Position numbers and translations under genes: made by a program. A DNA stretch of 31,057 nucleotides from a virus (lineage: Duplodnaviria; Caudoviricetes): the IMG/VR virus record IMGVR_UViG_3300012943_000051, positions 1-31,057 of that record. The stretch is one strand, 5' to 3'. This document shows, piece after piece, positions 1,412 through 18,136 of this stretch. The stretch's first letter is position 1, and every line of letters begins with the position of its first letter. The notes under the pieces are model-generated. The model was not told where the DNA came from. It worked only from the letters and a program-made list of their open reading frames with translations, and did no database searches.

Positions 1412-1747
1412 GTGCGTAATACGCATCGGACCTTTCACGAGCTGGCTCCACCTGTTCACGCAGGCTGGACCCAGCGCCGACCCGTCGGGCTCGTGACCCT
1501 GCCGTGCCCTGAATGCCTGGCTCGCGGCATCGCCACGATCCGCAGCCGCATCGGCTCTCGCCGGGTCCAGTGCAAGATGTGCAATCGGTTCGCCCAGCTG
1601 ACCAGGAACCAGGCTCGGAAGGAACTCGCGGTTCTGTACCCCGAGGACTTCAAGCGCCTGCGCGACCGGGCTGAGTATGACGTCTATGCGCTGCTGGTGG
1701 AGCAGTATTGCCAGATGAGCCAGGATGTGTCGCATGGGAACCGTTGA
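1412..1747 (+). CDS. Zn-finger (CxxC...CxxC) hypothetical protein
   Basis: CPEC and CKMC motifs; TAATCT lies 7 nt before the GTG (possible leaderless start). Confidence 0.6.
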   Translation: MRNTHRTFHELAPPVHAGWTQRRPVGLVTLPCPECLARGIATIRSRIGSRRVQCKMCNRFAQLTRNQARKELAVLYPEDFKRLRDRAEYDVYALLVEQYCQMSQDVSHGNR

Positions 1748-2339
1748 CCCCGACCTGGTGCTGCGACCCGATCAGCGCAGCGATCCGATGCTCTGGACCG
1801 TCCCGATGCCGGCCAAGTACCGGCCGCTGATCGAGGCCATCGACACCTCCACACCCTCGATGGAGCGGTTCGTCGGACCCGGTCGGGGCATGTCGCTCAA
1901 GTCCTTCGGGCACACCCCGAGCGGGGTGCACTTCCTGCTCACTCGGGCCGGCACCACGGTCCACGTCGACCCGGCGTACACCCGCTACAGCCATCAACTG
2001 ATCCTCCGCAACGACGGCAACCGCATCCGTGGACTACCTCGGTACGACAGTAGTGACTCCTCCAAGTGGCATTCACCGCTGGTCCCCGGGACCCTCTACG
2101 CCCTGGACACGCACTCCCCGCACCAGGGTCTGCACGACCCGCGCATCAGCCCCGCCGCCGGACTCAAGGCGGTGATCGCGGTGGACCGGGACCAGCCGCT
2201 GGACCCCGACGAGGTGTGGGAGCTGTTCCGCCCGTGGGTGGTGAGCGGCATCCAGTTCGCCGACGTGGCCCAGCCGGGCGACGTGCTCGCCTCGGTGAGC
2301 GCACCGCGCTGGCGGGACAACAAGGCCGGCGCTCGGTGA
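1734..2339 (+). CDS. putative 2OG-Fe(II) oxygenase / cupin-fold protein
   Basis: HxD (HVD) plus a distal His in GTLYALDTHSPH, the double-stranded beta-helix pattern; AGGA upstream of ATG1734 (alternative start 1725). Confidence 0.5.
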   Translation: MGTVDPDLVLRPDQRSDPMLWTVPMPAKYRPLIEAIDTSTPSMERFVGPGRGMSLKSFGHTPSGVHFLLTRAGTTVHVDPAYTRYSHQLILRNDGNRIRGLPRYDSSDSSKWHSPLVPGTLYALDTHSPHQGLHDPRISPAAGLKAVIAVDRDQPLDPDEVWELFRPWVVSGIQFADVAQPGDVLASVSAPRWRDNKAGAR

Positions 2340-2947
2340 CGGCAGGCGGTGGCTTGGTCACCCTGCCCCCGGTGTTCGTCACCGCCGTGCCGTGGGACCC
2401 GAAGCGGGCGGTGGCGGCGACCCGGATGGTGCAGTGGCTGCACTTGGCCGGGCACACCGCGACGGTGGTGTGGGACAAGCACCACGACCACTACGAGACG
2501 TTCGTCCGGATGCTGCGTTCGGCCGGCCAGGGCGCGGCGATCTTCCTGGAGGATGACATCGAGTTCACGTCGAACTGGGACGTGAAGATGGCGGCCGAGA
2601 TCGCCGCGCACCCGGACGTGCTGATCCAGACCTACTCGAACCGCAACGCCGACCTGACCTATGGTTCGCGGTGGGAGAAGGGCAAGTCCTACCTGAACAA
2701 CCAGTGCTGGTACGTCCCACCGGGGATGGCCGCGTCACTGGCCGACTATCTCGACACCTGGCCCAACCACCTGGACGGCACCGACCCGACGGGCACGGAC
2801 CTGGCGGTGAGCCACTACCTGCACGCCAATCGGCTGAGCTACTGGCTGGTCGCGCCGTCCCTCGTGCAGCACCGGGACTGGGTGAGCGCGATCAACCCGA
2901 AGCGCCCGCACGGCAAGATGCGGCAGAGCAAGTCGTACGTGCCGTGA
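2336..2947 (+). CDS. GT-A fold glycosyltransferase (GT25-like)
   Basis: AIFLEDD motif and C-terminal PSLVQH; GTGA overlap start. Confidence 0.7.
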   Translation: MTAGGGLVTLPPVFVTAVPWDPKRAVAATRMVQWLHLAGHTATVVWDKHHDHYETFVRMLRSAGQGAAIFLEDDIEFTSNWDVKMAAEIAAHPDVLIQTYSNRNADLTYGSRWEKGKSYLNNQCWYVPPGMAASLADYLDTWPNHLDGTDPTGTDLAVSHYLHANRLSYWLVAPSLVQHRDWVSAINPKRPHGKMRQSKSYVP

Positions 2948-3966
2948 CCGTCGAGACCTGGTCCGAGGTGTGGCCCGAGGACTTCATCACCACCGACGAC
3001 CTGGCCTGGTGGCTCGACCTCGCGCCGACACTGAGTTGGCGGTGGGCCACCACCTACGCCGACTCGGCCCCACACTCGTACGTGGTGCGGGACAAGGACC
3101 TCGACAGCACCCTGTTCGACCGCGCCGCCCGGGTGATCCGCACGTACGGTCGGCCGGGCAAGTTCTTCCGGTCCACCCAGCTCTACCTGTACGACCCGCC
3201 CGACTCCATCCCCGGCTCGGGCCGACCGATCCGGAAGTGGTGGACGATGAGCGGTCCGGTCTCGATCCAGGGCGTGATCAACACGACCGACGACGACCGG
3301 GTGTACGGGAAGCAGGACGCCCCGGACACCCGCTACCGCCCACCCAGGCCGCCCACCACGGTCATCGAGGACGACACCCGCGAGGTCTACGACGCCCTCG
3401 CGACGGCGTACGACGCGCGCTACGACCCGGCCCACTGCCCGCAGTGCACGACGGAGAACGAGGCGATCGCCCGGCTGATCCGCCGGCACTTCGGGGCGTA
3501 TGCACCCAGCACCCTCGACGTGGGCTGTGGGACCGGGCTCACGCTGGACCTGCACGTCACCGCGCCGGGCATCTACACCGGGGTGGACCCGAGCCAGGGC
3601 ATGCTGAACCAGCTCGTGCAGAAGCACCCGCGTGCGACCCGGCTGCTGCCGATGCGGATGGAGACGGCGCTGTCCGACCAACTCTTTGCCCCGCGCTCCT
3701 TCGAGCTGGTGGTCAGCCTGTTCGGCAGCCCCAGCTACCTCGAACCGTGGGCCATCTCCCCCATCGCGGAGCTGTCCAGTGACCTGACCGTGTTGATGCA
3801 CTACCGCCGCGGCTACTGGCCCTCGTACTGGCCGCACAAGCCCGCGCACATCGACGAGAGCCGGGAGGCGGCGGTCGAGCTGGTGGCCAGCCTGCTCACC
3901 GAGGGGCGTCGCCCCGCCCGCCAGTTCGACCTGGACGACATGGTCGTCACCGTGATCGGAGGCTGA
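2944..3966 (+). CDS. class I SAM-dependent methyltransferase with an N-terminal Trp-rich domain
   Basis: Motif I LDVGCGTG, then YTGVDPSQGML and FELVVSLFGS; N-terminal WRWATTY..APHSY...KWWTM domain. Confidence 0.8.
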   Translation: MTVETWSEVWPEDFITTDDLAWWLDLAPTLSWRWATTYADSAPHSYVVRDKDLDSTLFDRAARVIRTYGRPGKFFRSTQLYLYDPPDSIPGSGRPIRKWWTMSGPVSIQGVINTTDDDRVYGKQDAPDTRYRPPRPPTTVIEDDTREVYDALATAYDARYDPAHCPQCTTENEAIARLIRRHFGAYAPSTLDVGCGTGLTLDLHVTAPGIYTGVDPSQGMLNQLVQKHPRATRLLPMRMETALSDQLFAPRSFELVVSLFGSPSYLEPWAISPIAELSSDLTVLMHYRRGYWPSYWPHKPAHIDESREAAVELVASLLTEGRRPARQFDLDDMVVTVIGG

Positions 3967-3989
3967 GCGCCCAACAAGCGCGACCAATC

Positions 3990-5216
3990 ATGGGCAACGA
4001 CCTCGTGTTCACCGGCAAGGCCCGGCCGCACTACTTCCTGCCGGGCAATGTGTACGACGCTGCCCGCAAGAGGATCCGCTGGCTGTTCGACGAGTTCGAC
4101 GGGAAGGTCAGCGCCTCGGTGAGCGGCGGCAAGGACTCCACCGTGGTGGCGGAGCTGCTGGCCGACGTATCGCAAGAGCTGGGCTGCGGCCCGGCGCACC
4201 TGCACTTCCTGGACCAGGAGGCGGAGTACCAGGCGACCATCGACTACATGCGGCTGTACCTCGACCGCCCCGACCGTTACAAGCTGGACTGGTACCAGAT
4301 CCCGTTCCGGCTGTTCAACGCGGCGAGCTACGACGAGGAGTGGCTCTACGTCTGGGACACCCGGCTGGACGACAGCGGCTGGATCAGGCCGAAGGAACCC
4401 TCCTCGATCAAGGTGAATGACTTCTTCACGCCGCGCGGTCACCAGATCGACCGGTTCAAGGAGGTCCTCGGCGCGATGAACCAGCGCGACGGCGGGGCGA
4501 TCCTGACCGGGATGCGGTGCGAGGAGAGCCCGACCCGCCGGGTGTTCATGACCTCGGTCCCCTCGTACAAGTGGGCGACCTGGGCCTCGGCCGGCAAGCC
4601 GAAGGGCAGCTACTACCTGTTCCACCCGATCTACGACTGGTCCTACCGGGACGTGTGGAAGTCGATCCACGACAACGAGTGGGCCTACAACACCTTCTAC
4701 GACGTGCAGTTCCAGTACGGCATCCCGCTGCGAAACATGCGGGTCTCCTCGTTCCACCACGAGCTGAGCCTGGCCAGCCTGAACTATCTGCAGGAGGTGG
4801 AGCCGGACACCTGGGAGCGGGCGACCCGGCGGCTGGAGGGGCTGAACTCCTTCGCGCACGTCGGCGAGGACCAGTTCCAGCAGCGCGGCAAGCTGCCCTA
4901 CATGTTCGCCTCGTGGGACGAGTACCTGGAGTACCTGATCTGCAAGCTGATCCCGAAGCCGGAGAACCAGGACAAGTTCCGCCGGATGATCGTGCGTGCC
5001 ACCAAGGCCCTGCCGCAGCTGAGCCACGAGGAGGTGATGGTCTCGATGTCGGCGGCCATCATGGGCAACGACGTGTACGGCACCTCGGTCGACCAGTGGA
5101 TTAGCAGCAACACCCCGGCGGCCCGGCGCTACCTGGCCGGCGACCTGACCGCGGCGTCGACCGCCCGGCAGCGGGAGCTCGAACAGGAAGCGAGGTCCGC
5201 CAGCTATGCGGGCTGA
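3990..5216 (+). CDS. PAPS-reductase family PP-loop protein (IbrA/DndC-like)
   Basis: SVSGGKDS PP-loop, FLDQEAEY, GMRCEESPTR, HPIYDWSYRDVW and MRVSS; paired with an IbrB-like gene. Confidence 0.85.
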   Translation: MGNDLVFTGKARPHYFLPGNVYDAARKRIRWLFDEFDGKVSASVSGGKDSTVVAELLADVSQELGCGPAHLHFLDQEAEYQATIDYMRLYLDRPDRYKLDWYQIPFRLFNAASYDEEWLYVWDTRLDDSGWIRPKEPSSIKVNDFFTPRGHQIDRFKEVLGAMNQRDGGAILTGMRCEESPTRRVFMTSVPSYKWATWASAGKPKGSYYLFHPIYDWSYRDVWKSIHDNEWAYNTFYDVQFQYGIPLRNMRVSSFHHELSLASLNYLQEVEPDTWERATRRLEGLNSFAHVGEDQFQQRGKLPYMFASWDEYLEYLICKLIPKPENQDKFRRMIVRATKALPQLSHEEVMVSMSAAIMGNDVYGTSVDQWISSNTPAARRYLAGDLTAASTARQRELEQEARSASYAG

Positions 5217-6459
5217 GAACATGCCGGTCCACCCGAAGGGCGCCGATGGCCACCGGCTCGGCACCGCCTACATCGCGGAACGGGTGGCCGCCGCCAACGC
5301 GCTGATCGAGCAGGCGTTCGGGCTGCTGCCGTGGACCGACCCGGTGGGCCAGGTGCGGTGGGTACACATCGACCTGGTGCAGGCGAACGACTACAACCCG
5401 AACGCGGTGGCCTACCAGGAGATGAAGCTGCTGCACACCTCGATCAGTGAGGACGGCTACACCCAGCCGGTCGTTGCGATCATCGAGTCTCGCGTTGATA
5501 TCGTCCTACCATGCGGACATCTTTCAACGCTGACCCTGGATACCGCCCAGTTCCTGAAGGGGCTTTGCTGGGGTACTGCGCAGGACTACTTGATGGAGAG
5601 GGAAGCATCTCTTCCCCTCAAGGTCTCTCGCATCGCCACTCCCGATGGCGGGTCCAGATCAGCCAGTCCGCCGGCAACGACGGACGCGAACTCTGTGAAT
5701 GGCTCCGCGACCTCTGGTCCATCGGCAACGTCTACGAGCAGCGGGGATACTGCCTCGCCTATGTCTGGAACATCGCCAGAATCGGGGACGTCCAGCACTT
5801 CCTGGGATCATGTCTGCCCTACCTGCGAGTCAAGGCGCGTCGGGCAGCAGAAGTCCTGGCGACGATCGAGGCTGAGTCCGGCGGACTCCGTCGGGGTCGC
5901 TGGACTGACGCTGAGCTGGGATATCTCCGAGCGTGTGGCGAGTCAACCTCCGCCGATGCCATCGCCGGGATTCTCAACCGCAGCGCGTCCGCAGTTCGAT
6001 TCAAGAGAAACGAGCTTGGACTCCGACGCCCACCTCGTAGTGCGTGACCGATCCAAGGCGATCATCGTCGACGGCTTCCACCGATACACAGTCATGCGGA
6101 AGTATCCGGACATCTCGGCGCGGACGGCGGACCACCTCCCCCTCGTAGTCCTCGACAAGCCGATCACCGGCCGGATCGCGGCGACGGTGCGACACAACCG
6201 GGCGCGTGGCAAGCACAGCGTCACCGGCATGGGCAGCCTGGTGTTCCAGATGCTGAAGGAGGGCATGGCTCCGGAGGACGTCTGCAACAAGCTCGGTCTG
6301 GAGCCGACCGAGCTGGCCAGGCTGACCCACATCACCGGCTACTCCAAGCTGTACGGCGACGTGGAGTTCAGTCGCCCGGTGCTGACCAGCAAGCAGGTCA
6401 GCGCCAAGAGCAAGTACGCCGCCGCCCATCCCGACGAGCAGGTGCCGTCGGACTTCTGA
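5206..6459 (+). CDS. IbrB-like ParB/Srx-domain protein carrying a ~185-codon in-frame insertion
   Basis: ANDYNPN..V, GYTQPVV, IVDGFHRY and ATVRHNRARGKH. The normally short loop between GYTQPVV and IVDGFHR holds a long Ser/Thr-rich insert. Confidence 0.8.
   Translation: MRAENMPVHPKGADGHRLGTAYIAERVAAANALIEQAFGLLPWTDPVGQVRWVHIDLVQANDYNPNAVAYQEMKLLHTSISEDGYTQPVVAIIESRVDIVLPCGHLSTLTLDTAQFLKGLCWGTAQDYLMEREASLPLKVSRIATPDGGSRSASPPATTDANSVNGSATSGPSATSTSSGDTASPMSGTSPESGTSSTSWDHVCPTCESRRVGQQKSWRRSRLSPADSVGVAGLTLSWDISERVASQPPPMPSPGFSTAARPQFDSRETSLDSDAHLVVRDRSKAIIVDGFHRYTVMRKYPDISARTADHLPLVVLDKPITGRIAATVRHNRARGKHSVTGMGSLVFQMLKEGMAPEDVCNKLGLEPTELARLTHITGYSKLYGDVEFSRPVLTSKQVSAKSKYAAAHPDEQVPSDF
5511..6047 (+). 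CDS. LAGLIDADG homing endonuclease with C-terminal HTH, nested in an alternative frame inside the IbrB-like gene
   Basis: YCAGLLDGEGSI motif, VQISQ and LPYLRVKARRA; RWTDAE..L...IAGILNRSASAV HTH; codon usage differs from the host. Confidence 0.85.
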   Translation: MRTSFNADPGYRPVPEGALLGYCAGLLDGEGSISSPQGLSHRHSRWRVQISQSAGNDGRELCEWLRDLWSIGNVYEQRGYCLAYVWNIARIGDVQHFLGSCLPYLRVKARRAAEVLATIEAESGGLRRGRWTDAELGYLRACGESTSADAIAGILNRSASAVRFKRNELGLRRPPRSA

Positions 6460-6491
6460 CGGCCCGCCCAACCCGAGCAGAGAGGACCACC

Positions 6492-7088
6492 ATGGGACCC
6501 ATCGAGGTGGTGGAGCTGGACGCGGTGATTCCGTACTGGCGGAACCCGCGCACCATCCCGGACGACGCGGTGAACGCGGTGGCCGAGTCGATCCGGCGGT
6601 ACGGGCTGCAGCAGCCGATCGTCGTGGACTCGAACTCGGTCATCATCATCGGGCACACGCGGTACTCGGCGCTGCGCCGGCTCGGGTTCACGAAGGTGCC
6701 GGTCCGCCAGGCCACAGACCTGAGTCCGACCCAGGTGCGCGAGCTGCGGGTGATCGACAACCGCACGCACGAGTACTCCTCGTGGGACTTCGAGAAGCTG
6801 ACCGGCGAGCTGAGCGACCTGGACATCGCGCTGATGCAGGCGTTCTTCCCGGAGGCGGGTGTGATCGGCGACCCCGGCGCGGGCAGCGACTCGGACTACT
6901 ACCTCGAACCGGCGGACCCCGGGTCGGACTCCCGCATCGTGCGCGAGGTGGAGTTCGTCTGCCCCTCGTGCTTCCACACCTGGGAGATGCCGGTGTCCAA
7001 GGCGCAGGTCGCCACCGGCCTGCTCGATGTCAGCTCCGCCCCGCCCGTCACTGCCACTGCCACCCAGATCGCAGGAGCCCGAGCATGA
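6492..7088 (+). CDS. ParB N-terminal domain protein with a C-terminal CPxC ribbon
   Basis: PYWRNPR, YGLQQPIVVD, IIGHTRY, IDNRT and CPSCFHTW; GAGGA RBS. Confidence 0.85.
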   Translation: MGPIEVVELDAVIPYWRNPRTIPDDAVNAVAESIRRYGLQQPIVVDSNSVIIIGHTRYSALRRLGFTKVPVRQATDLSPTQVRELRVIDNRTHEYSSWDFEKLTGELSDLDIALMQAFFPEAGVIGDPGAGSDSDYYLEPADPGSDSRIVREVEFVCPSCFHTWEMPVSKAQVATGLLDVSSAPPVTATATQIAGARA

Positions 7089-7720
7089 CCGCCCCCTACA
7101 CCCGGCCCGACGGACCGCCGATGCCGGTCGAGCGCACGCTGGCCATCGAGGACATCAAGCCGTACTGGCGCAACCCGCGGCGCATCCCGCAGGATGCGAT
7201 CGACGCGGTGGCGGCCAGCATCGAGCGGTTCGGCTACCAGCAGCCGATCGTGGTGGACACCGAGAACGTGATCGTGGTCGGGCACACCCGGCACCAGGCG
7301 CTCAAGCAGCTCGGCTACACCAGCGTTCCCGTGTATGTCACCGACTTGCCCGAGAACAAGGTCCGCGAGTACCGGCTGGTCGACAACCGGACCAGCGAGA
7401 TGAGCGACTGGGACCACAGCGCCCTGGTGCTGGAGCTGCGGGAGTTCGAGACCGCGCTGCTGGACCGCTACTTCCCGGACGTGGATCTGGAGATCGGGGC
7501 CATCACCGCGGTGAACGACGTGACCTCCGGTGACGTGGACGAGGCGACCGGCAAGGTGAAGCGGGTGGCGGAGGCGGACCCGACGGCGACTCACACGACC
7601 AATGTGAAGTGCCCGGCCTGTTTCCACACCTTCGAGGTGCGGACCCGCTCGCTGCCCGGCCTGACCTACGACGACCTGTGGGAACTGGTCGAGGCGAGCA
7701 CCGGCACCGAGGCAAGCTGA
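7085..7720 (+). CDS. ParB N-terminal domain protein (tandem paralogue)
   Basis: PYWRNPR, FGYQQPIVVD, VVGHTRH, VDNRT and CPACFHTF; ATGA overlap; GGAG RBS. Confidence 0.85.
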   Translation: MTAPYTRPDGPPMPVERTLAIEDIKPYWRNPRRIPQDAIDAVAASIERFGYQQPIVVDTENVIVVGHTRHQALKQLGYTSVPVYVTDLPENKVREYRLVDNRTSEMSDWDHSALVLELREFETALLDRYFPDVDLEIGAITAVNDVTSGDVDEATGKVKRVAEADPTATHTTNVKCPACFHTFEVRTRSLPGLTYDDLWELVEASTGTEAS

Positions 7721-7725
7721 GCAGC

Positions 7726-8433
7726 GTGCCCCGCCGTACGGCTCCGCCGCCACCCTCACCAACCTCCACCGCGACCCGCCCTCGGCACCACCCGCCGAAG
7801 CACGACGCGGTGAGTGAGGTGCTGGCCGCGGTCGAGCAGTCCGGCGTGGACACCGACCCACTGCCCGAGCCCGGCTCCCTGGAAGCCCGGCGACGGGACC
7901 GGGAGCGGGTGCGGCGGACCGAAGCCTTGAGCCTTCGGCTGGCCGGGCTGACCTACGCCCAGATCTCCGAGCGGATGCGGATCAGCCACGACGCAGCCGA
8001 GGACATGGTCGACCGGGTGCTGGGCGAGGTGCGCGACCGGGGCGTGGCCGAGCTGCGGGAGCTGGAGGGTGCGCGGCTGGATCGGGCGCAGGCGGCGATC
8101 TGGACGCAGGTGCTGGAGGGTGACCTGAAGGCGGTCGACACCTTCCTGCGGCTGTCCTCGCGGCGGGCGAAGATGTTCGGCCTGGATGCGCCGACCAAGA
8201 TCGACCTGTCGCTGAACGTGCGGGCCGAGATGGAGCACGCGCTGGCCCAGCTCGAAGCGGTGGTGATGGGCGAGGTGGTCAGCGTGACGGACGTGCCGCT
8301 CCCGCGCTACCCGGAGACTCATGCCCAGCAGTACGACCCGTCCCACGCAGCTCCCGCCACCGGGCCAGCCGCATCAGGATCAGGCCCGTCATCGTCATCA
8401 CCGGACCATGATGACGCCCAGTTCGCAGGCTGA
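7726..8433 (+). CDS. terS: terminase small subunit (HTH)
   Basis: ALSLRLAGLTYAQIS HTH and RAKMFGLDAPTK; directly upstream of the large terminase. Start codon uncertain. Confidence 0.7.
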   Translation: MPRRTAPPPPSPTSTATRPRHHPPKHDAVSEVLAAVEQSGVDTDPLPEPGSLEARRRDRERVRRTEALSLRLAGLTYAQISERMRISHDAAEDMVDRVLGEVRDRGVAELRELEGARLDRAQAAIWTQVLEGDLKAVDTFLRLSSRRAKMFGLDAPTKIDLSLNVRAEMEHALAQLEAVVMGEVVSVTDVPLPRYPETHAQQYDPSHAAPATGPAASGSGPSSSSPDHDDAQFAG

Positions 8434-10141
8434 CCTCGGACCGATACCGGACGACCCGGTCGGGGCGATCGACGAGCTGCGCCGGTTGGCCGCGCAGTGC
8501 GGCAGCGACGCCGAGGCGCGGGCCATCACCAGCCGGATCGCCTCGCTGACCCGGGCTTATCGGATTACCCGCGGGATCGGGATGCCGCTGTCCCCGGTGG
8601 CGCAGGCGAAGGAGATCGACCCGCGCTTCGCCATCCGGCCGCACCTGGACCTGCTCGGTGAGCGGATCGCGGAGAACGTGCGGGCGGTGGAGCGCGGGCG
8701 CAACCGGATGGTGTGCGTCTCGATGCCGCCGAGAGCGGGCAAGTCCACCCTGATCTCGGTCTACACGCCGCTGTGGCTGCTGCGCCGGCACCCGGAGTGG
8801 CAGATCATCAGCGCCAGCTACGAGGGCGGGCTGCCCGCCGGGTGGGCGCGGCACGTCCGGCGGTTGATCGAGGCGGACCCGAACCTCGGGGTGGCGCTGG
8901 CACCGGACGGTGGGGCGGGCAGCCGGTGGTCGACCATCGAGGGCGGCGGGTTGTACTCGACCTCGGTGCGCGGTGCGCTGACCGGCCGCGGTGCGCGGGT
9001 GCTGCTGATCGACGACCCGGTGCGGGACTTCGTGGAGGCCCACTCGCTGGTGATGCGGCAGAACCTGTGGGACTGGTGGCTGAACGTGGCGCAGACCCGG
9101 CTCGAACCGCCCTACCTCGTGGTGGTCGTGATGACCCGGTGGCACGAGGACGACATGATCGGGCGGCTGCTCTCGGAGGACTACGAGGGCGACCCGCGCC
9201 AGTGGGAGCGGATCAGCCTGCCTGCCCTCGCGGAGGCGGACGACCCGCTCGGCCGGGGTGAGGGCGAGCCGCTGTTGTCCCCGCTGCTGACCGAGGACCG
9301 GAACGCGGCGATCGATCGGTGGCTGGACGTGAAACGGTCCGTCGGGACCTACACCTTCAGCGCGATGTACCAGCAGCGGCCGGCGCCGGCGAAGGGTGCG
9401 ATCTTCGACAGCGGGTGGTGGCGGTTCTGGACGATGAACTCCGAGCGGGCCACCGAGGACGGCCGGGTGGTCTATCTCGATCCGTCCAAGCTGACCGGCG
9501 GGCGCTGGGTGGACTCGTGGGACATGGCGTTCAAGGGCCGGGTGAAGGACACCGGCGGCGGTGGGTACGTCGTCGGCCAGCGGTGGGTCCGGCAGGGCGA
9601 CAACCGTTACCTGATCGCCCAGCAGCGGGGCCGGTGGTCCTTCGTGGAGTCCATCGCGGCGATGCGGCGGTGGGCCATCGCCGACAACCCGGGGCTGTCG
9701 CCGTGCGGGCACCTGGTGCACGAGCGGCTGATCGAGGAGGCGGCCAACGGGGCGGCCATCATCGACACGCTGAGCGATTCGATCAGCGGCATCAAGCCGA
9801 TCATCGCCAGCCTGGGCAAGGAGGTCCGGGCGCACGCGGTGACACCGGAGATCGAGAGTGGCAACGTCTACCTGCCGCATCCGGCGGACCCGGGCAACGG
9901 GTGGGTGAACGACTACCTCTCGGAGCTGCGGAACTTCCCGAACGATGTGGCCGACGACCAGGTGGACGCGACGACGCAGGCGCTGGCGGTGCTGCGGGTC
10001 GGCCGGCGCGGGCAGATCACCGTGCCCGGACGCCTCGCGCTGACCACCGGCAACCCGCAGTGGCAGGTCGGCCGGGACTACGCCCGAGCGGCGCTGTCCG
10101 ACCTGAACCGGCCGCGAGGTCGCCCGGCCGGCAGGTCCTAG
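8408..10141 (+). CDS. terL: terminase large subunit
   Basis: Walker A SMPPRAGKS, Walker B LLIDDP, VMTRWHEDD, nuclease motifs SWDMAFK and DDQVDA. Confidence 0.95.
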   Translation: MMTPSSQADLGPIPDDPVGAIDELRRLAAQCGSDAEARAITSRIASLTRAYRITRGIGMPLSPVAQAKEIDPRFAIRPHLDLLGERIAENVRAVERGRNRMVCVSMPPRAGKSTLISVYTPLWLLRRHPEWQIISASYEGGLPAGWARHVRRLIEADPNLGVALAPDGGAGSRWSTIEGGGLYSTSVRGALTGRGARVLLIDDPVRDFVEAHSLVMRQNLWDWWLNVAQTRLEPPYLVVVVMTRWHEDDMIGRLLSEDYEGDPRQWERISLPALAEADDPLGRGEGEPLLSPLLTEDRNAAIDRWLDVKRSVGTYTFSAMYQQRPAPAKGAIFDSGWWRFWTMNSERATEDGRVVYLDPSKLTGGRWVDSWDMAFKGRVKDTGGGGYVVGQRWVRQGDNRYLIAQQRGRWSFVESIAAMRRWAIADNPGLSPCGHLVHERLIEEAANGAAIIDTLSDSISGIKPIIASLGKEVRAHAVTPEIESGNVYLPHPADPGNGWVNDYLSELRNFPNDVADDQVDATTQALAVLRVGRRGQITVPGRLALTTGNPQWQVGRDYARAALSDLNRPRGRPAGRS

Positions 10142-10659
10142 CCCAGGATCAGCCTCAGTCTGGTACCCGGAGTCGGGGTGTCCTGCGAGCCGAAGATCGC
10201 CACCCGGACCGCGTTGATCGTGATCCACTGCGCGGTCGGTGGGTAGACGGGCCTGCCGCCCACGACGTACTGGCGGAAGGCGGTGACCGGCGGCGTGTCC
10301 GGGTCGTCGGTCAGCACGATGGTGTCCCCGACATCGAGCCCGGACAGGTCGTGCAGTGTGTCGTCGACGTCGGTGAGGGACAGCTGGATCTTCCGATTCG
10401 TCTCGCCCAGCACCTCGATGTGCACGCCGCCCGGTTCCACCGGCATCGAGGTAGTCCACTCCCAGACCCCGGCGTCACCGCCGCTGGTCGCGGGCAGCCG
10501 GGAGTACAGGTCCGTGATGGAGGCCAGCACCGAGGCGTTCTGCTGCTGCTGGGCGGCCAGGTACGAGGCGGTGCCCTGCATCAGCTCGACCCCTCGGTCG
10601 TACAGGTACTCGGGCGTGGGCAGGTCCCCGGGAGGTGTCGGCGTGAACGTCATGGACAT
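10138..10659 (-). CDS. hypothetical beta-rich protein, possibly a virion accessory protein
   Basis: Good codon bias on the minus strand; stop shares CTAG with the terL stop; start at 10653, 10659 or 10671. Confidence 0.65.
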   Translation of the reverse strand: MSMTFTPTPPGDLPTPEYLYDRGVELMQGTASYLAAQQQQNASVLASITDLYSRLPATSGGDAGVWEWTTSMPVEPGGVHIEVLGETNRKIQLSLTDVDDTLHDLSGLDVGDTIVLTDDPDTPPVTAFRQYVVGGRPVYPPTAQWITINAVRVAIFGSQDTPTPGTRLRLILG

Positions 10660-10669
10660 ACCCTGGACC

Positions 10670-10810
10670 ATGCCCGGGAGAGGCAAGTACAGGAGCATCA
10701 AGCTGCCGCGCGTCTACAACGCCCTCAAGCGCAAGGGCTACAGCAAGAGCAAGGCGGCGGCGATCAGCAACGCGATGGCGAACGGGTCGATCAACCGACG
10801 GCGGAAGTAG
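10670..10810 (+). CDS. small basic protein (46 aa)
   Basis: MPGRGKYRSIKLPRVYNALKRKGYSKSKAAAISNA; typical codons; TACCCT 5 nt before the ATG. Confidence 0.65.
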   Translation: MPGRGKYRSIKLPRVYNALKRKGYSKSKAAAISNAMANGSINRRRK

Positions 10811-10864
10811 CCCAAAGCGGCATCGGCGCTGGTCCGGTCGGGGTGCGCACCCTACCCTTGGCCC

Positions 10865-12922
10865 ATGCCTGAGCACGCTGCACTGCTGGCCCTTACCTCG
10901 ATGACGGCCGACGGCTGCGTGCCGTGCGCGCAGCGGTCCGCCGCGGTGCTGACGGTGGGGTACGACGCCGACGGGCGCGGTGTGTCGGCCGATCGAGTGA
11001 ATCTGGCTGACGACGTGGGGGATTCAGAGACCGACGCGACTTATACCCATACAACCCAGTGGTCCGGCGTGATCGGCGTCGAGGGCGAGCTGACCGGCGA
11101 CGGGCGGTTGATCGAACCGAACGCACTGCGCTGGGAGAACCTGCCGCTGCCGCTGCGCTACGTCAGCTCGGACGTGGGTGCGCACGACGGCGCGGTGGTG
11201 GTCGGCCGGATCACCTCGATCACCCGGGCCGACGGCGGCCAGATTCTCGGTGAGGGCGACTTCGACGTGTCCTCGACGTGGGGCGCGGAGGCCGCCCGGC
11301 AGGTCGGAGAGGGGCTGACCAACGGGGTCTCGATGGACCTGGACGACGTGGACTTCGAGCTGCGCATCGCGGGCGAGTTGATGGAGGACGACGGCCTGCT
11401 GCTGCCGATGTTCCTGGCCAGCGAGTCCCTCGATGCAGGCGAGGACACCGAGGACACGCCGTCCGACGAGCCCGAGACCGATGCCGACGGGCGGGTCACC
11501 GTGGCCACCATGAACGCTGACGACGAGGTGCGGGTGACCACCTCGGGCCGGATCAGGGCGGCGACCATCGTGGCGATTCCGGCTTTTGTAAACGCCCGTA
11601 TAGAGTTGACTGGTGAGCAAGCCGAAGACGCCAGCCTCGGAGCGGGTCTGGAAGCACATTCAGCGGGGAGCACCGGACGAGTGCTGGCTCTGGACGGGGT
11701 GGGCTTTCGCCCCGAAGCGCAATGGGGTACTGCGCGCGTACATCACCGAGGGTGGTCGGAGTCGGAAGTTCAAGGTCGTGGCCCGAGTGCTCTGGGAGAG
11801 TACGCAGGGTCCGATCCCACCGGGCCTGACCGTGGACCACACCTGCCAGAACACACTGTGCTGCAACGTATTCAGGCACTTCGAGCTGGTAACGGCAGCG
11901 GAGAACACGGCGCGGTACAACCGGGCGCGTGCTTTGTCGCTGTCAACCACCTGTGGGTTTGGGCACCCATTCAGCGAACAGAACACGCTGCTGGCGATGC
12001 GCCGACGCAAGGATGGTTCCACGTACGAGGTGCGGACCTGTCGAGCTTGCAAGTACGACCACGCTCGGAACCAGCGGACCTCGGACGGGGAGTTGGTTCG
12101 GACTCCCGCGTGGGTCTGACCGCGGCTGTCCCGGTCGATCCGCCCGCTGCCTGGTTCTCCAACCCGAACCTGCGCGAGCCGACCGCGATGCACTACGGCG
12201 ACGACGGCCGGGTGTACGGGCACATGGCGCTGTGGGGTACCTGCCACGTCGGCATCGGCCAGCACAACGGGACCTGCACCCCGCCGCCGCACTCAGCCAG
12301 CAACTACCAGCACTTCCACACCGGGGCGCTGCGCACCGCCGAGGGCAGCGAGATCGCGGTCGGGCACATCACTCTCGACACCCGGCACGCACCCGGCGCG
12401 GCGAATGCGGTGCGGGCGATGGCGCACTACGACCACACCGGGATGGTGGCGGCGGACGTGCGGGTGGGCGAGGACTCGCACGGCATCTGGGTGGCCGGCG
12501 CACTGCGGCCGGACGTGACCCCGACGCAGATGCGGGACCTGCGCAGCGCTCCCCTCAGTGGGGACTGGCGGCGGATCGGGTTCGCGCTGGAGATGGTGGC
12601 GAGCCTGTGCGTGAACGTGCCGGGGTACGGGGTCCCGCGACCCTCGGGCCTGGTCGCGGGCGGAGCTGTGGTCTCCCTGGTTGCGGCGGGGATGGTGGCT
12701 CCGAGGAAGGTCCGTCGACCGGGCACCGAGGGCGCGCTGAGCCTGGACGACCTGCGCTACCTCAAGCGGCTGGCCGACCGCGAGCGGGCCGAGGAGGCAG
12801 CGTTGGTGGCCTCTGGTTCGCTCGACACGGCCTCGGAGCTGGCCCGCCGGGTGCGGGCGTCCAGCCTGGCGATGCGGGTCCACCACCCGGCCAATCACCG
12901 GCCCGATCGAGGAGGGCAGTAG
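10865..12922 (+). CDS. capsid maturation protease (two-domain) with an in-frame insertion in the linker
   Basis: EGELTGDGR, AHDGAVVVGRI, GVSMDLDD and IRAATIVAIPAF; C-terminal domain PPAAWF.NP, GRVYGH.A.WGTCH and LSGDWR. Confidence 0.8.
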   Translation: MPEHAALLALTSMTADGCVPCAQRSAAVLTVGYDADGRGVSADRVNLADDVGDSETDATYTHTTQWSGVIGVEGELTGDGRLIEPNALRWENLPLPLRYVSSDVGAHDGAVVVGRITSITRADGGQILGEGDFDVSSTWGAEAARQVGEGLTNGVSMDLDDVDFELRIAGELMEDDGLLLPMFLASESLDAGEDTEDTPSDEPETDADGRVTVATMNADDEVRVTTSGRIRAATIVAIPAFVNARIELTGEQAEDASLGAGLEAHSAGSTGRVLALDGVGFRPEAQWGTARVHHRGWSESEVQGRGPSALGEYAGSDPTGPDRGPHLPEHTVLQRIQALRAGNGSGEHGAVQPGACFVAVNHLWVWAPIQRTEHAAGDAPTQGWFHVRGADLSSLQVRPRSEPADLGRGVGSDSRVGLTAAVPVDPPAAWFSNPNLREPTAMHYGDDGRVYGHMALWGTCHVGIGQHNGTCTPPPHSASNYQHFHTGALRTAEGSEIAVGHITLDTRHAPGAANAVRAMAHYDHTGMVAADVRVGEDSHGIWVAGALRPDVTPTQMRDLRSAPLSGDWRRIGFALEMVASLCVNVPGYGVPRPSGLVAGGAVVSLVAAGMVAPRKVRRPGTEGALSLDDLRYLKRLADRERAEEAALVASGSLDTASELARRVRASSLAMRVHHPANHRPDRGGQ
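11613..12119 (+). CDS. HNH homing endonuclease nested in the +1 frame inside the protease gene
   Basis: ECWLWTG, GPIPPGLTVDHTCQNTLCCN..HFELVT..EN and a C-terminal CxxGH...CxxC. Confidence 0.9.
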   Translation: MSKPKTPASERVWKHIQRGAPDECWLWTGWAFAPKRNGVLRAYITEGGRSRKFKVVARVLWESTQGPIPPGLTVDHTCQNTLCCNVFRHFELVTAAENTARYNRARALSLSTTCGFGHPFSEQNTLLAMRRRKDGSTYEVRTCRACKYDHARNQRTSDGELVRTPAWV

Positions 12923-12931
12923 GATAGCTAT

Positions 12932-13357
12932 GTGGAAAGAATCGACCCACTGATCCGGCTGCTTCGGAACTGCGACTGGGAGGACGGATGTCTGGTCTGG
13001 CAGGGGAGCGGGCCGAGGGAGTACGGAACGTTTCAACCCGGGACGCGTGCCTTAGATCCGAAAGAATACGTGCACCGGTTCGCGTACTTGAGGTTCGTGG
13101 GTTTGATCCCATCGGGCAAAGAGATCGACCACGTCGCCGCCCGTGGCTGCCACTCGAAGCGATGCATTCTCCCGTGGCACCTCGAAGCGGTGACTCACAG
13201 GGAGAATCGGAACAGGGCTCGACTCAAGGTGTGCCGAGCGGGGAAGCATGACCTCACCGATCCAGCCAACGTCAGATGGGATGGGAATGGTTGTCGTAGA
13301 GGCTGTCTCATCTGTCATCGCGAGCGAGCACTCGCCCGCTATCACGAGAGGGTGTGA
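12932..13357 (+). CDS. free-standing HNH homing endonuclease
   Basis: GCLVWQG, YVHR, EIDH...C..KRC..PWHLEAVT..EN and C..GKH...CLIC; lower GC than its neighbours. Confidence 0.9.
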   Translation: MERIDPLIRLLRNCDWEDGCLVWQGSGPREYGTFQPGTRALDPKEYVHRFAYLRFVGLIPSGKEIDHVAARGCHSKRCILPWHLEAVTHRENRNRARLKVCRAGKHDLTDPANVRWDGNGCRRGCLICHRERALARYHERV

Positions 13358-13608
13358 GTCCGACGAGCTGTAACTGCGGCGGCAAGGGCAAGAACAAGAC
13401 CGCCACCACGACCACCCAGAAGGCCGGGGCCGGTCAGGGCAGCCGGCCGACGAACATCGTGCCGGCCCAGCCGGTGAAGTCGGCGACTGGTCGGACGCAG
13501 ACCTTCACCCTGTTCGACGGCGCGGGGCCGGTGCAGTCCTTCGGCTCCCGGCTGGAGGCGGAGGCGGCCCGGGTCCGGCGCGGTGGCACGGTGTACGTCA
13601 CCGGCTAA
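13354..13608 (+). CDS. small head-module protein with an N-terminal CNCGG motif
   Basis: SCNCGG...SRLEAEAARVRRGG; GTGA overlap; follows the protease region. Confidence 0.7.
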   Translation: MSPTSCNCGGKGKNKTATTTTQKAGAGQGSRPTNIVPAQPVKSATGRTQTFTLFDGAGPVQSFGSRLEAEAARVRRGGTVYVTG

Positions 13609-13636
13609 CCCGAACCCGACCTGTCTCGACTATGAA

Positions 13637-14425
13637 CTACCGCGAAGGTTTGTCAGCTCCGACGATCACGCAGCGGCAGTTGGCGGTCTGGCCGGTCGGT
13701 GCGGACGGGTCGCCGGGGTAGGGGAGGGTGTAGCCGCCGACGACGAACGAGCCGGTGAGCGGCACGGTCTGGCCGCTGGCGGAGGCGTGCGCGGGCCGGA
13801 CGTGCCGGTCGTGGTGGGAGACCCACCGCTTGTACTTCACACCGGCCCGGCCGAGGTCGACCAGCGAGGAGACGCCATAGGCTGCGGTGGCCTCGGTGCG
13901 GGCAATTCGCTCGGCGGTCGTTGCGTAGGTGAAGCCGCCCTCCTCGATGGTTGGGGCCCCTGCCGCGTCCGAAGGATCCTGGGTTCGCACCGAGGTGCCG
14001 CGGTCCGGGGCCAGCGCCAGCCGCAGCTCGGCGGTGGTCTTGGGCCGGGACCAGCTCTGCTGGGTGGAGGCGGTGAGCACCTCGACCGCGCTCGAATACG
14101 CCCGCGACGGCAGGTTCGACGACCGCAGCCGCTGCTGCATCCCGCGCAGGTACGCCTCGACGAAGGGGTCGGTGCCCTTACCGCGGCCGAAGAACCGGCC
14201 CACCGTGCGGCCGAAGCCCTCGACCACGGTCTCCCATAACCCGAGCACCGAGCCGAGGGTGAAGGGGTTGCGACCGGCGGCCAGCAGCACCGCGGTCGGC
14301 AGTGAGTCCTGGGCGGCGGAGTTCACCTCGCGCAGGAACACCCGCAGCGAGCGGTCCATCTCCCCGGTCAACTGGCGGTCCAGCCGGGCTCGGCCGGCGG
14401 TGGCGGCACCGGGCGATTCAGGCAT
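13637..14425 (-). CDS. MuF-like minor capsid (head morphogenesis) protein
   Basis: RIARTEAT, KRWVSHHDRHVRPAH and YPGDP...ANCRC. Confidence 0.88.
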   Translation of the reverse strand: MPESPGAATAGRARLDRQLTGEMDRSLRVFLREVNSAAQDSLPTAVLLAAGRNPFTLGSVLGLWETVVEGFGRTVGRFFGRGKGTDPFVEAYLRGMQQRLRSSNLPSRAYSSAVEVLTASTQQSWSRPKTTAELRLALAPDRGTSVRTQDPSDAAGAPTIEEGGFTYATTAERIARTEATAAYGVSSLVDLGRAGVKYKRWVSHHDRHVRPAHASASGQTVPLTGSFVVGGYTLPYPGDPSAPTGQTANCRCVIVGADKPSR

Positions 14426-14885
14426 CGACGGACTCCCGCCCTCGGGCCGGGGTCGTGGCCGTGAGCACCACGTAGACCGGCAGGTGCAGCTGGGTCTCGA
14501 AGCGGTAGTGCAGCTCGGCCAGGGTGTGCGGGGTGCCGGTGATCACCAGGTCGTGCACGTAGGCGTCGAGGCAGGCGGTCACCTGCAGCGCGGTGATGTT
14601 GCAGCAGCCGTGCGTGTTGAGCATGGCCGGGATGACGTCCCAGGCCCCGCGCAGCGCCTTGTCGACGATGTCGTCGGTGTCCTGCCAGCGGGTGTGCACC
14701 TGGTGCAGCGGGGTGCGGGCCGCGGCGGCCTCGGCGAACCGGCTGCGCCCGCCGACCCGGAGCAGCCAGCGGCCCATCGCCTCCAGCGCCTTGACCACCA
14801 GCACGTCGCAGACGGCGAGCAGGATCTGGCTCTGGTCGTGCGGGGTCTGCTGCCCGCAGACCGGGCAGCGGGCCTCGTCGATCAT
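14418..14885 (-). CDS. hypothetical protein coupled to the portal gene
   Basis: ATGA overlap with the portal stop; MIDEARCPVCG...VCDVLVVKALEAMGRWL...GAW...GTPH. Confidence 0.7.
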   Translation of the reverse strand: MIDEARCPVCGQQTPHDQSQILLAVCDVLVVKALEAMGRWLLRVGGRSRFAEAAAARTPLHQVHTRWQDTDDIVDKALRGAWDVIPAMLNTHGCCNITALQVTACLDAYVHDLVITGTPHTLAELHYRFETQLHLPVYVVLTATTPARGRESVDA

Positions 14886-16603
14886 CCGACGTACACCCGC
14901 CCGTTGCCGCTGACACCACTCGCAGCCAGTCCACCGGCCTCGGCCGGCGGCACTGACGGCGGTGCGCCGTCGGTGGTCGGCACCCCGCCACCCTCGGGCA
15001 CCCTCGGCGGCGGCGGCGCGGGTGGCAGGTTGCCGGTTGCTGCTGCCCCACCCGGAGCAGCAGGAGCAGGGGCCGCGGGCTCCGCCGTCGGGTCGCTGAC
15101 CATCGGGATGTCGCCGGCCAGCACCGCCCGGATCTGGGCCACCAACTGCGGGATGCCGGGGTTCTGCACCAGGGTCGGCGAGGTGCGGGCCATCTCCAGG
15201 GCCAGCACGACCTCCTGCGGCAGGACGGCGGCGACGGCCGGTGCGTCCGACTCGTCGAAGCCGGTGGCGTTGCGCACCGTCTCGTCGCTGATCACGCCGC
15301 GCTGGTGCAGGGCGAGCGCGTCCTGGCTCCGGTTCGGCCGGACCACCAGGTCGCTCACGTCGTACCAGACGACGTATTGCCGGGCGGCGTCCTCGTCCAT
15401 GCCCTGGGCGATCAGCACCGGCCAGAGGTACTGAGTGGTCAGCGCGTCGCAGATCAGCGCCAGCGGCGGCTCCAGGTGGGTGGTGACCACGTCCTCCTGG
15501 ACCAGCCAGGCTCCCCAGTGGTTCATCCCCGACGTGCCGAGCAGCAACTCGGGCGGGGCGTCCTGACCTAGCGCCAACCGGCGGATCGCCTCGTCCCGCA
15601 GGTTCCGGCTCTCGGTGTCCAGCGGCTTGGCGAAGGTGATGAACTCGAACAGCCCGGCCGCGTCGTCCGGCACCGTGACCACCAGCGGTACCAGCGCGGA
15701 GGCGTTGGCCCGGTCCTCGATGGGCTTGAGCATGGCCTCCATCAGGGCCTCGGTGAACTGGTCGGTCATCTCGTCCTCGGGGATGCCCGCGGCGATCTGC
15801 AGTGCCCGCTGCGCCGACTGCGGCACGATGAGCAGCCCGGCCCCGGCCAGGCGAGAGTCCACCTGTGCGGAGATGTGCATGGTCAGGCCGACCAGCTCGC
15901 GCAGGACAGGCAGGCTCGACCTGGTCGGGGAGTCGGCCTCCCAGAACCGCCGCGGGTGCGGTCGCCAGACCCGGATCAGCCAGATGTCCTCCGGCTCGAC
16001 CTTGATCTGCTCCTTCTCGCCGTCGCCGAGCGCAAGCTGCACCTGGCCACCGGCCGAGCTGCTCACCTCGGAGACCGAGAGCATCCGCCATTCCAGGTCC
16101 TCGATGTCCAGCTCGCCGTCTTCGGTGCCGGGCCGGATACCAAGGCTGGCACCGCTCGGGCCGACCGAGACCGACCGGACCTGGGTCTCGTCCAGCGACA
16201 GCCCGCCGCGCAGCGTCTCAGGCAGCAGAGTGCGCGGGATGCCGGCCAGCCAGCCGTCGCCGGCGACGAACAGGTTGATGCCCATCCGGTTGAGGATCGC
16301 CGAGCGGCCGGCCATCGAGGACCCGAAGGCTTTCAGAACGGCGGCCACGTCGGTGTTCTCGGTGGGCACCGGATCGTCGGTGTCGTCCTGCGGCATGGTG
16401 CCGACGTAGAGCTTGGCCTGGGCCAGCCGACCGGCCAGCGTGGTGGCCAGGAAGCGTTGCTCACCGACCAGGTCGAACATCTCCCAGGCGTCCTCCTGCC
16501 AGCTCTTGGCGTTGGAACCCTGCCGCGTCATGGTGCGGTTGGTGAGGCGGCGGGCGGAGGCGACGAGTGAGGTCAGCGGGCGCGGCCCGGCAGGCGCGGT
16601 CAT
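14882..16603 (-). CDS. portal protein
   Basis: WQEDAWEMFDLVGE, RVWRPHPRR..EADSP, SRLAGAGLL, RRLALGQDAPPELLLG and NHWGAW; Pro/Ala-rich tail. Confidence 0.88.
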   Translation of the reverse strand: MTAPAGPRPLTSLVASARRLTNRTMTRQGSNAKSWQEDAWEMFDLVGEQRFLATTLAGRLAQAKLYVGTMPQDDTDDPVPTENTDVAAVLKAFGSSMAGRSAILNRMGINLFVAGDGWLAGIPRTLLPETLRGGLSLDETQVRSVSVGPSGASLGIRPGTEDGELDIEDLEWRMLSVSEVSSSAGGQVQLALGDGEKEQIKVEPEDIWLIRVWRPHPRRFWEADSPTRSSLPVLRELVGLTMHISAQVDSRLAGAGLLIVPQSAQRALQIAAGIPEDEMTDQFTEALMEAMLKPIEDRANASALVPLVVTVPDDAAGLFEFITFAKPLDTESRNLRDEAIRRLALGQDAPPELLLGTSGMNHWGAWLVQEDVVTTHLEPPLALICDALTTQYLWPVLIAQGMDEDAARQYVVWYDVSDLVVRPNRSQDALALHQRGVISDETVRNATGFDESDAPAVAAVLPQEVVLALEMARTSPTLVQNPGIPQLVAQIRAVLAGDIPMVSDPTAEPAAPAPAAPGGAAATGNLPPAPPPPRVPEGGGVPTTDGAPPSVPPAEAGGLAASGVSGNGRVYVG

Positions 16604-16613
16604 GGCAAGAAGG

Positions 16614-16820
16614 CTAGGTGGACGGCTCTACTGCGTCACCATCCCGCACCGCGATCGGCACCATCTCGAACAGCTCGGTCCGGCCGCTGATCGTGTCCAT
16701 GAAGGCGAGCCCGGACTCCTTGTCGTCGAACAGCACTGACGTCAGGACTCGCCAGCCGGGGATCACCGCACCGGTGATGTCGCGGCCCTCGGGTCCGTAG
16801 CGGACCATGCAGTAGGTCAT
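16614..16820 (-). CDS. hypothetical protein
   Basis: ATGA overlap with the upstream gene; typical codon bias. Confidence 0.6.
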   Translation of the reverse strand: MTYCMVRYGPEGRDITGAVIPGWRVLTSVLFDDKESGLAFMDTISGRTELFEMVPIAVRDGDAVEPST

Positions 16821-18040: not shown

Positions 18041-18136
18041 TGGCGAAACCCTTGTGCCGCATTGCCGGCGAGGGGTCCGTTGGACTTGCCCAGTCCGGCG
18101 CTGATGAGCCAGGGCACTCCAGAGAGGGAGCGAGCA

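Follow-up and report, generated by a model that had tools for sequence, protein, structure and literature searches.

How a nuclease gene that lies out of frame within another gene's open reading frame (ORF) comes to be expressed is a question posed twice by a single stretch of viral DNA, the record IMGVR_UViG_3300012943_000051 of 31,057 nucleotides (nt; hereafter the window). The window is an entire 31-kb contig of a soil actinobacterial tailed phage of high guanine-plus-cytosine (GC) content, the best matches of its genes being in Microbacterium phages. It encodes, on the plus strand, a LAGLIDADG-like nuclease of 178 amino acids (aa) with a single motif (5511..6047), nested in a gene of the ParB/Srx fold (5206..6459, 417 aa); the endonuclease HNH1 (11613..12119, 168 aa; HNH_3, E 1.8e-9), nested in the capsid maturation protease gene (10865..12922, 685 aa; a name taken from annotated Microbacterium phage relatives); and the free-standing endonuclease HNH2 (12932..13357, 141 aa; HNH_3, E 7.4e-9), whose stop overlaps the start of the next gene at 13354. 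All three are preceded by a TANNNT hexamer placed 6 nt before the start codon. Judging from these sequences, we consider it probable that each nuclease is transcribed from its own box as a leaderless mRNA, with both host genes being translated, unspliced, through the nested cassettes.

The geometry set out in the original prediction was recovered at each site: TATCGT (5499-5504) leads to ATG 5511, TAGAGT (11601-11606) to GTG 11613 and TAGGAT (12920-12925) to GTG 12932, these plus-strand hexamers being the predicted -10 boxes of the LAGLIDADG gene, HNH1 and HNH2, respectively. At all three nucleases the first T falls about 12 nt before the ATG or GTG, as is canonical for leaderless genes. The extended TGn claimed for the first site is likewise present, as TG-A directly before TATCGT (5496..5504, plus strand; host-frame codons V-D-I-V), and this TGA doubles as the upstream stop of the nuclease frame. 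A search by eye for a -35 box found none that was convincing. Only four of the 2295 ATG, GTG and TTG triplets of both strands have TANNNT at 6 nt, namely the three nuclease starts and that of the protease itself (TACCCT, 10853..10858, plus strand, 6 nt 5' of its ATG and predicted to serve the protease gene as a leaderless promoter). At 5-8 nt there are 13, among them the presumed portal start (TAGCCT, 16611..16616, minus strand, 7 nt before ATG 16603 of a 573-aa gene called portal by position). The non-random feature is placement, in that all four window occurrences sit at gene starts; the chance of three out of three is about 1e-8 to 1e-7, if the sites are independent, and the signature is well beyond chance.

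Each of these nuclease starts is the first in-frame start after a nuclease-frame stop, and for both HNH genes it is the sole start within the first 30 codons, the LAGLIDADG gene having one alternative (TTG 5565). Ribosomal frameshifting into the nuclease frame was considered and is ruled out by nuclease-frame stops, which precede the start by 3 nt in HNH1 and by 12 nt in the LAGLIDADG gene. As had also been claimed, there is no clear Shine-Dalgarno (SD) site at either nested gene: the best anti-SD pairing is -1.9 and -2.4 kcal/mol, compared with -4.6 to -11.5 kcal/mol at 9 of the 11 box-less gene starts of the window that were scored, one further start with a mis-set coordinate being excluded. 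Weak pairing is also seen at the PAPS reductase (-0.6) and gene 13354 (-3.0), both of which are box-less. HNH2 has a strong AGGAGG (12910..12915, plus strand), yet this lies 16 nt before the start codon. For the LAGLIDADG gene, structure prediction on a long transcript pairs the -10 region with the opening codons of the nuclease (5490-5530), which would hide the ATG.

The boxes have different origins. The suggestion that all three were built from rare host codons fits HNH1 but not the other two, the ParB box being part of the inserted cassette and the HNH2 box being formed by the protease stop codon and three intergenic bases. The HNH1 box lies in a tract of host-conserved protease codons (IPAF..ARI.LT, 11576..11611, plus strand), many of which are rare. 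Their rarity at 11585-11608 is real when counted over ten reference genes of the window (TTT 0/92, GTA 3/273, CGT 8/247, ATA 1/138 and TTG 16/312); however, the hexamer takes its bases from ATA (11600-11602) and TTG (11606-11608) only, whereas TTT, GTA and CGT lie outside it. For comparison we used 38 distinct insert-free alleles from 86 loci, loci off the motif pattern having been dropped. In these the conserved Ile is encoded by ATC in 37, ATT in one and ATA in none, making ATA the sole rare box codon that is missing from all 38. GTA and CGT are likewise absent from the 38, whereas TTT (4), GCT (2), ATT (3) and TTG (3) all occur, so that the supposed absence of such codons from insert-free homologues holds for some of them, including the key codon ATA, and not for others. 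One insert-free allele (L118) reads ATC GAG TTG ACC GGT G where the window has ATA GAG TTG ACT GGT G. It already has TTT, GCT, ATT and TTG and is one synonymous change away from a box plus GTG; hence, the box and the GTG start of HNH1, which overlaps the host Gly codon of L-T-G, appear to sit on ancestral host sequence. In another insert-free allele (L126) a TANNNT is present, but in a different register. The ParB box falls within the conserved host-frame motif D-I-V-L-P-C, where GAT supplies its T (8% usage) and CCA supplies the A of the ATG (3.5%). It is not forced by the amino acids, because one related locus (L205) keeps the motif but lacks both the box and the ATG at that place, its nuclease starting about 20 codons later behind an SD, and another (L206) uses its own box and ATG at a register other than that of the window. 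As for HNH2, the insert-free L118 has the same protease ending, which runs straight into a small gene, and the AGGAGG is thus probably the ancestral SD of that small downstream gene.

Boxes of this type recur in related phages. In the protease-to-capsid interval, relatives of HNH2 carry TACGCT-N6 (L164), TATACT-N6 (L167 and the near-identical L179), TAAAAT-N6 (Colbert gp10, with the protease stop forming the first half) and TAAATT-N7 (YorkOnyx gp19, where a small gene stands between protease and HNH); the same-locus HNH genes of these five other phage loci share the spacing and differ in their letters. The nested LAGLIDADG relative in L206 has TAAAGT-N6-ATG in its different register, and among HNH1-related loci a box is found at a plausible start in 3 of the 8 examined (6 distinct; 16 loci in total). 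The position of the box therefore appears conserved while its letters diverge. The protease start carries the box in all 5 annotated Microbacterium phages and in 14 of 21 unfused viral alleles, but in only 1 of the 40 that have a long N-terminal extension. The signature is thus not special to nucleases but is an ordinary predicted promoter type of these phages, which the nucleases share with the protease and portal starts. The proposal of leaderless expression is accordingly strengthened by the canonical geometry and by recurrence with diverged letters, but it describes something neither nuclease-specific nor universal for hidden nucleases. In five loci (L017, L018, L019, L021 and L026) a conserved ATCCTA, which is TAGGAT on the other strand, precedes the protease -10 box by about 20 nt, possibly as a divergent promoter or an activator site. 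Many cluster B1 phages retain only the C-terminal third of the HNH2 relative (Vortex gp10, L192:3028-3186), and the internal deletion also takes the end of the -10 box.

Both host frames remain open across the nested genes. The ParB cassette (5479..6054, approximate ends, plus strand; host-frame residues ~92-283) adds about 190 codons to a beta-hairpin loop of the host protein, a member of phrog_2159 that we take to be IbrB-like and whose model (range 48-329) matches sulfiredoxin with Z 10.5 and a root-mean-square deviation of 2.7 over 89 aligned positions; nuclease codon position 1 corresponds to host position 3. The LAGLIDADG label of the nested gene is based on the motif, a tblastn match to the LAGLIDADG protein Jada gp185 (E 7e-6) and an Atlas lead (score 0.90); a Pfam search of this ORF gave no match, and its PHROGs family, phrog_5046, is there labelled HNH. 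HNH1 lies in a variable linker of the protease. The cassettes are of lower GC than the window (62-64% vs ~70%), and the nuclease ORFs occupy nearly the whole of the inserts. No host-frame stop occurs in the two inserts of the window or in those of L205 and L206, where recoding matched for GC at third codon positions predicts 6.1-8.6 (about 8.5 for L205 and L206); the latter two loci were found via the nuclease frame and so were not chosen for an open host frame. Host-frame substitutions favour codon position 2, which is the nuclease's silent position, by 193:77 in the ParB insert vs 73:70 in the core, as counted from five non-independent pairs, and the nuclease frame is under selection. Neither insert contains an Rfam intron family at E <= 1, two chance-level matches lying elsewhere, and intein junctions (Cys/Ser at the N-end; His-Asn plus Cys/Ser/Thr at the C-end) are absent from the insert ends. 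One DNA read set, possibly the source of the window, spans both inserts with 0 differences in long pieces, which argues against an assembly error without being independent support.

The distribution of the inserts is patchy. In most homologues the ParB loop has 15-25 residues at the insert site, and 190-220 residues are present there in 6 other proteins of the 119 parsed, five of them related to the window's insert. Another search added two carriers (its 4 matches also included one known already and one unrelated repeat protein), and a nuclease-frame scan added two more (2 of 6 loci). The parsed viral loci of the homologue scan contained no ParB insert, single-sequence locus scans with the LAGLIDADG protein and both host proteins found nothing, and a GTDB scan gave one short match that is not a real relative; patterns for the ParB-insert junctions hit 0 viral stretches and, in metagenome contigs, only the window's own record. 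In the protease the linker ranges from about 40 to more than 500 residues in homologues, and one protein (P0042) appears to hide an HNH at the same offset, with a score of 64 (window, 59), the remaining 21 long linkers scoring 22-35; it is the sole other candidate protease insert among the 22 other long linkers scored. True LAGLIDADG inteins occur a few codons upstream of the nested-insert site of the ParB gene in P0132, P0167, P0168, P0217, P0218, P0220, P0222 and P0243, the last having intein and nested insert side by side, and P0171 has a different open insert of about 220 residues in the same loop, probably another hidden gene.

The host-frame product of the ParB insert has conserved positions of its own. 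Within P102-C103-x-H105 (5509..5520, plus strand), where CCA-TGC also provides the nuclease ATG, all 9 aligned carriers share P102-C103 and 8 of them keep H105, carriers whose nuclease starts elsewhere among them. C204-P205-x-C207 (5815..5826, plus strand), which lies on synonymous positions of the nuclease L-P-Y-L, is invariant in all nine, and the combined pattern C-x-H...C-P-x-C is found in the window, L205, L206, P0128, P0144, P0151, P0161, P0176, P0243 and P0244. Forty-two nuclease residues are identical in the three DNA sequences, and only 3 of them yield invariant host-frame columns, these being the C, P and C of C-P-x-C. AlphaFold rebuilds the ParB/Srx core around the insert, with block values of the predicted local distance difference test of 74-91 for residues 91-140 and 76-88 for 201-240, and disorder between. 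Folding of the insert by itself is weaker (best model 63, others 38-54); for this insert-only model of moderate confidence Foldseek and VIA returned no match (best E 2.1, best Z 4.0) and listed no HINT chain, showing neither a new nor a known fold. In prediction, the host-frame product is hence partly folded and not pure filler, and C204/C207 are candidate metal-binding partners of C103/H105 in a putative zinc clasp. We regard it as possible, if somewhat short of probable, that this stretch is under selection for three codes at once, comprising a promoter and start made by silent changes, a nuclease, and a de novo folded, zinc-clasped host-frame domain that loops the parasite out, all being maintained together across phages of 41-68% GC. 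Seven nuclease-free ParB homologues (P0140, P0165, P0170, P0175, P0193, P0199 and P0204) have loops of 31-47 residues at the site, most with Cys/His patterns, which might be the ancestor or a remnant of such a clasp.

These observations suggest the following scheme. The host's principal sigma factor would read TANNNT and start transcription at the A or G of the start codon, and ribosomes would initiate at the mRNA 5' end without an SD, which would make a buried out-of-frame gene translatable. The boxes would have arisen where they cost nothing to host coding, by a silent ATC-to-ATA change in the protease, by silent choices in the D-I-V-L-P-C motif of the ParB cassette and from a stop codon at HNH2. 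The nucleases would spread their own alleles by homing. The host proteins would tolerate the inserts, which in the protease would serve as a linker and in ParB would form a loop that is partly folded and possibly held by a zinc clasp.

Several points weigh against this scheme. The motif as such is not enriched in the window (4 seen vs 4.7 expected in 30 first-order Markov simulations), and in M. tuberculosis about 3,100 of about 16,400 TANNNT copies, or about a fifth, are active (available text of PMC3898074). The box is found in 5 of 13 annotated actinophage nuclease relatives vs 7 of 92 neighbouring genes (Fisher p 0.006; 5/14, p 0.009, if one unannotated gene is included), but these 13 were hand-picked from match lists, and the other 8 are without it, several of the box-less ones overlapping the upstream gene or having an SD. 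An SD leads the nuclease of L205, P0244 does not allow a box at the window's register, and neither of the two hidden HNH genes of ShiLan and Pacc40 has TANNNT at 5-8 nt before any candidate start. The V-S-L residues of P0042 are compatible with a box at the same register, though P0042 and five close ParB carriers were compared as protein, where the silent T cannot be read. Milder nulls make the open frames less surprising: P is 0.03-0.22 for the three LAGLIDADG inserts, the value of 0.22 being that of the window's own with its codons shuffled, and 0.004-0.21 for HNH1, being 0.21 with host codon usage. Finally, the promoter leaves the rare codons upstream of the HNH1 box unexplained; an upstream element, immunity to the nuclease or a bias of the lineage might account for them instead.

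An alternative that we judge unlikely is internal initiation on a long host mRNA, aided by structure and, for HNH2, by the AGGAGG or re-initiation, with the boxes being inactive relics or weak extras. This comes near the proposal of PMC11855218 (its discussion 4.3), and ShiLan, Pacc40 and L205 do without the box. The strong SD of HNH2, 16 nt upstream of its start, and the stop 9 nt upstream could serve it, but the AGGAGG belongs to the downstream gene in the insert-free L118, both nested starts are without an SD, and a spacing that stays at 6-7 nt while the letters change from lineage to lineage is as expected of a promoter. Homing nucleases are known to gain self-immunity through changes in the flanking sequence. 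The rare protease codons could thus be mainly an immunity or conversion tract that removes the nuclease target, the -10 box being its by-product or one of two functions. We hold this to be improbable: it would account for TTT, GTA, CGT, ATT and GCT outside the hexamer and for a GTA and CGT that no insert-free allele has, but L118 already has several of these codons, and the same spacing at the other two genes and in relatives is left unexplained. As regards the upstream codons, such a tract is compatible with the promoter model.

Even less probable, in our view, is removal of the inserts as introns, inteins or ribosome-bypass elements that have gone unrecognised, in which case the host frame would not be coding across the promoter. 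The ParB insert lies between the two copies of a 10-nt direct repeat, GCGATCATCG (5476-5485 and 6058-6067), and seven listed homologues have true inteins at a nearby site. However, the repeat encodes the A-I-I of two strands that are separately present in insert-free alleles, and bypass or splicing at GCGATCATCG was rejected since joining would delete a strand. Removal also sits poorly with the lack of intron families and intein termini, with host-frame stops purged and host-frame cysteines conserved, and with an HNH1 box in host-conserved codons whatever happens downstream. The least credible reading is chance, whereby lower-GC cassettes and flexible start choice would suffice, given the number of motifs expected window-wide; it is already largely refuted, the starts being fixed by the upstream in-frame stop and homology, every window occurrence standing at a gene start and the spacing recurring in relatives.

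Elsewhere in the window, the gene order at 10138-16603 is unusual, as the minus-strand portal-like and MuF genes converge on the protease operon, far from the capsid gene at 22639. Beside the terminase, 1725-7720 encodes a methyltransferase, a PAPS-reductase-like protein and three ParB-fold proteins, probably forming a DNA-modification module, and 18041-18118 gives a weak match to a type II hammerhead (27.7 bits against a threshold of 37 bits, E 0.094).

Leaderless expression from such boxes has precedent in Actinobacteria, whose leaderless genes are marked by a TANNNT about 12 bp before the start (available text of PMC3160421). In M. tuberculosis a -35 motif was not detected, a TGn makes the promoter stronger and single-nucleotide polymorphisms that make TANNNT often give new start sites (PMC3898074, same limit). 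As far as these sources describe them, such genes share with the window the hexamer, the distance, the ATG or GTG start, the lack of an SD and, at one site, the TGn; unlike them, the window's box lies inside another gene's translated codons or its stop and would serve a selfish nested gene. In phage T4, I-TevI/II/III, segA, segG, mobC and mobD have their own middle or late promoters (available text of PMC2988022). These resemble the window in being nuclease-specific promoters embedded in a host transcription unit or the 3' part of an upstream gene; on that account, however, they are phage middle or late promoters within introns or gene ends, with SD-led, hairpin-controlled and not leaderless translation, and the T4 nucleases do not lie beneath an open host frame that spans them.

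The closest layout is that of the hidden out-of-frame HNH nucleases in mycobacteriophage DNA methylases, namely the ShiLan domain and the Pacc40 gp60 insert (Arsenault, Gosselin, Gogarten 2025, PMC11855218). There, leaderless initiation on a larger transcript was proposed, and the word 'promoter' has 0 occurrences. Shared with this type are a stop-free in-frame insert, a nuclease in another frame, the lack of an intron or intein signature and the patchy distribution; in the window, however, the inserts occupy a ParB-like gene and a head protease gene, the nuclease in the former is of the LAGLIDADG type, and the ParB host-frame product, rather than being a plain loop, has conserved Cys/His residues. 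In ShiLan gp65 (L188:8516, 8594) the published hidden-HNH GTG has no box. A second GTG, 26 codons downstream, is preceded by GGAGG at 4 nt and, further away, by TAGGTT; initiation may really occur later than published and be led by an SD. Likewise, non-canonical actinobacteriophage inteins contain a nuclease ORF that is out of frame with the open host ORF around it (bioRxiv 10.1101/2025.01.02.630785), with a protein-splicing domain that the window inserts lack, and the available text of that report has 0 occurrences of 'promoter' and 'leaderless'. An internal leaderless promoter for a nested nuclease was not found in the literature searched, subscription journals and supplements being outside its scope. 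Colbert gp10 (cluster B1 mycobacteriophages) and YorkOnyx gp19 (a Gordonia phage), which are 44-49% identical to HNH2 and occupy the same interval, are annotated only as HNH proteins in records that note no promoter; Colbert, like the window, has a 9-nt gap and a box that derives from the stop codon.

The 2025 description of hidden nucleases left their translation route open, and the window offers named bases and predicted start sites for it. Actinobacterial phages may be easily invaded, in that a three-base promoter together with leaderless initiation can arise by silent change, and TANNNT-N6-start would be a cheap search signature for overlooked nested genes. If the role proposed for the conserved host-frame cysteines is true, overprinting would here have given rise to a new folded domain, for which natural examples are rare. 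Thus, the layout is that of the published ShiLan-type hidden nuclease and each ingredient is known; what is new is a concrete predicted promoter for a nested gene, its apparent origin from a silent host codon, the LAGLIDADG-in-ParB family and the signs of selection on the host frame of the ParB insert.

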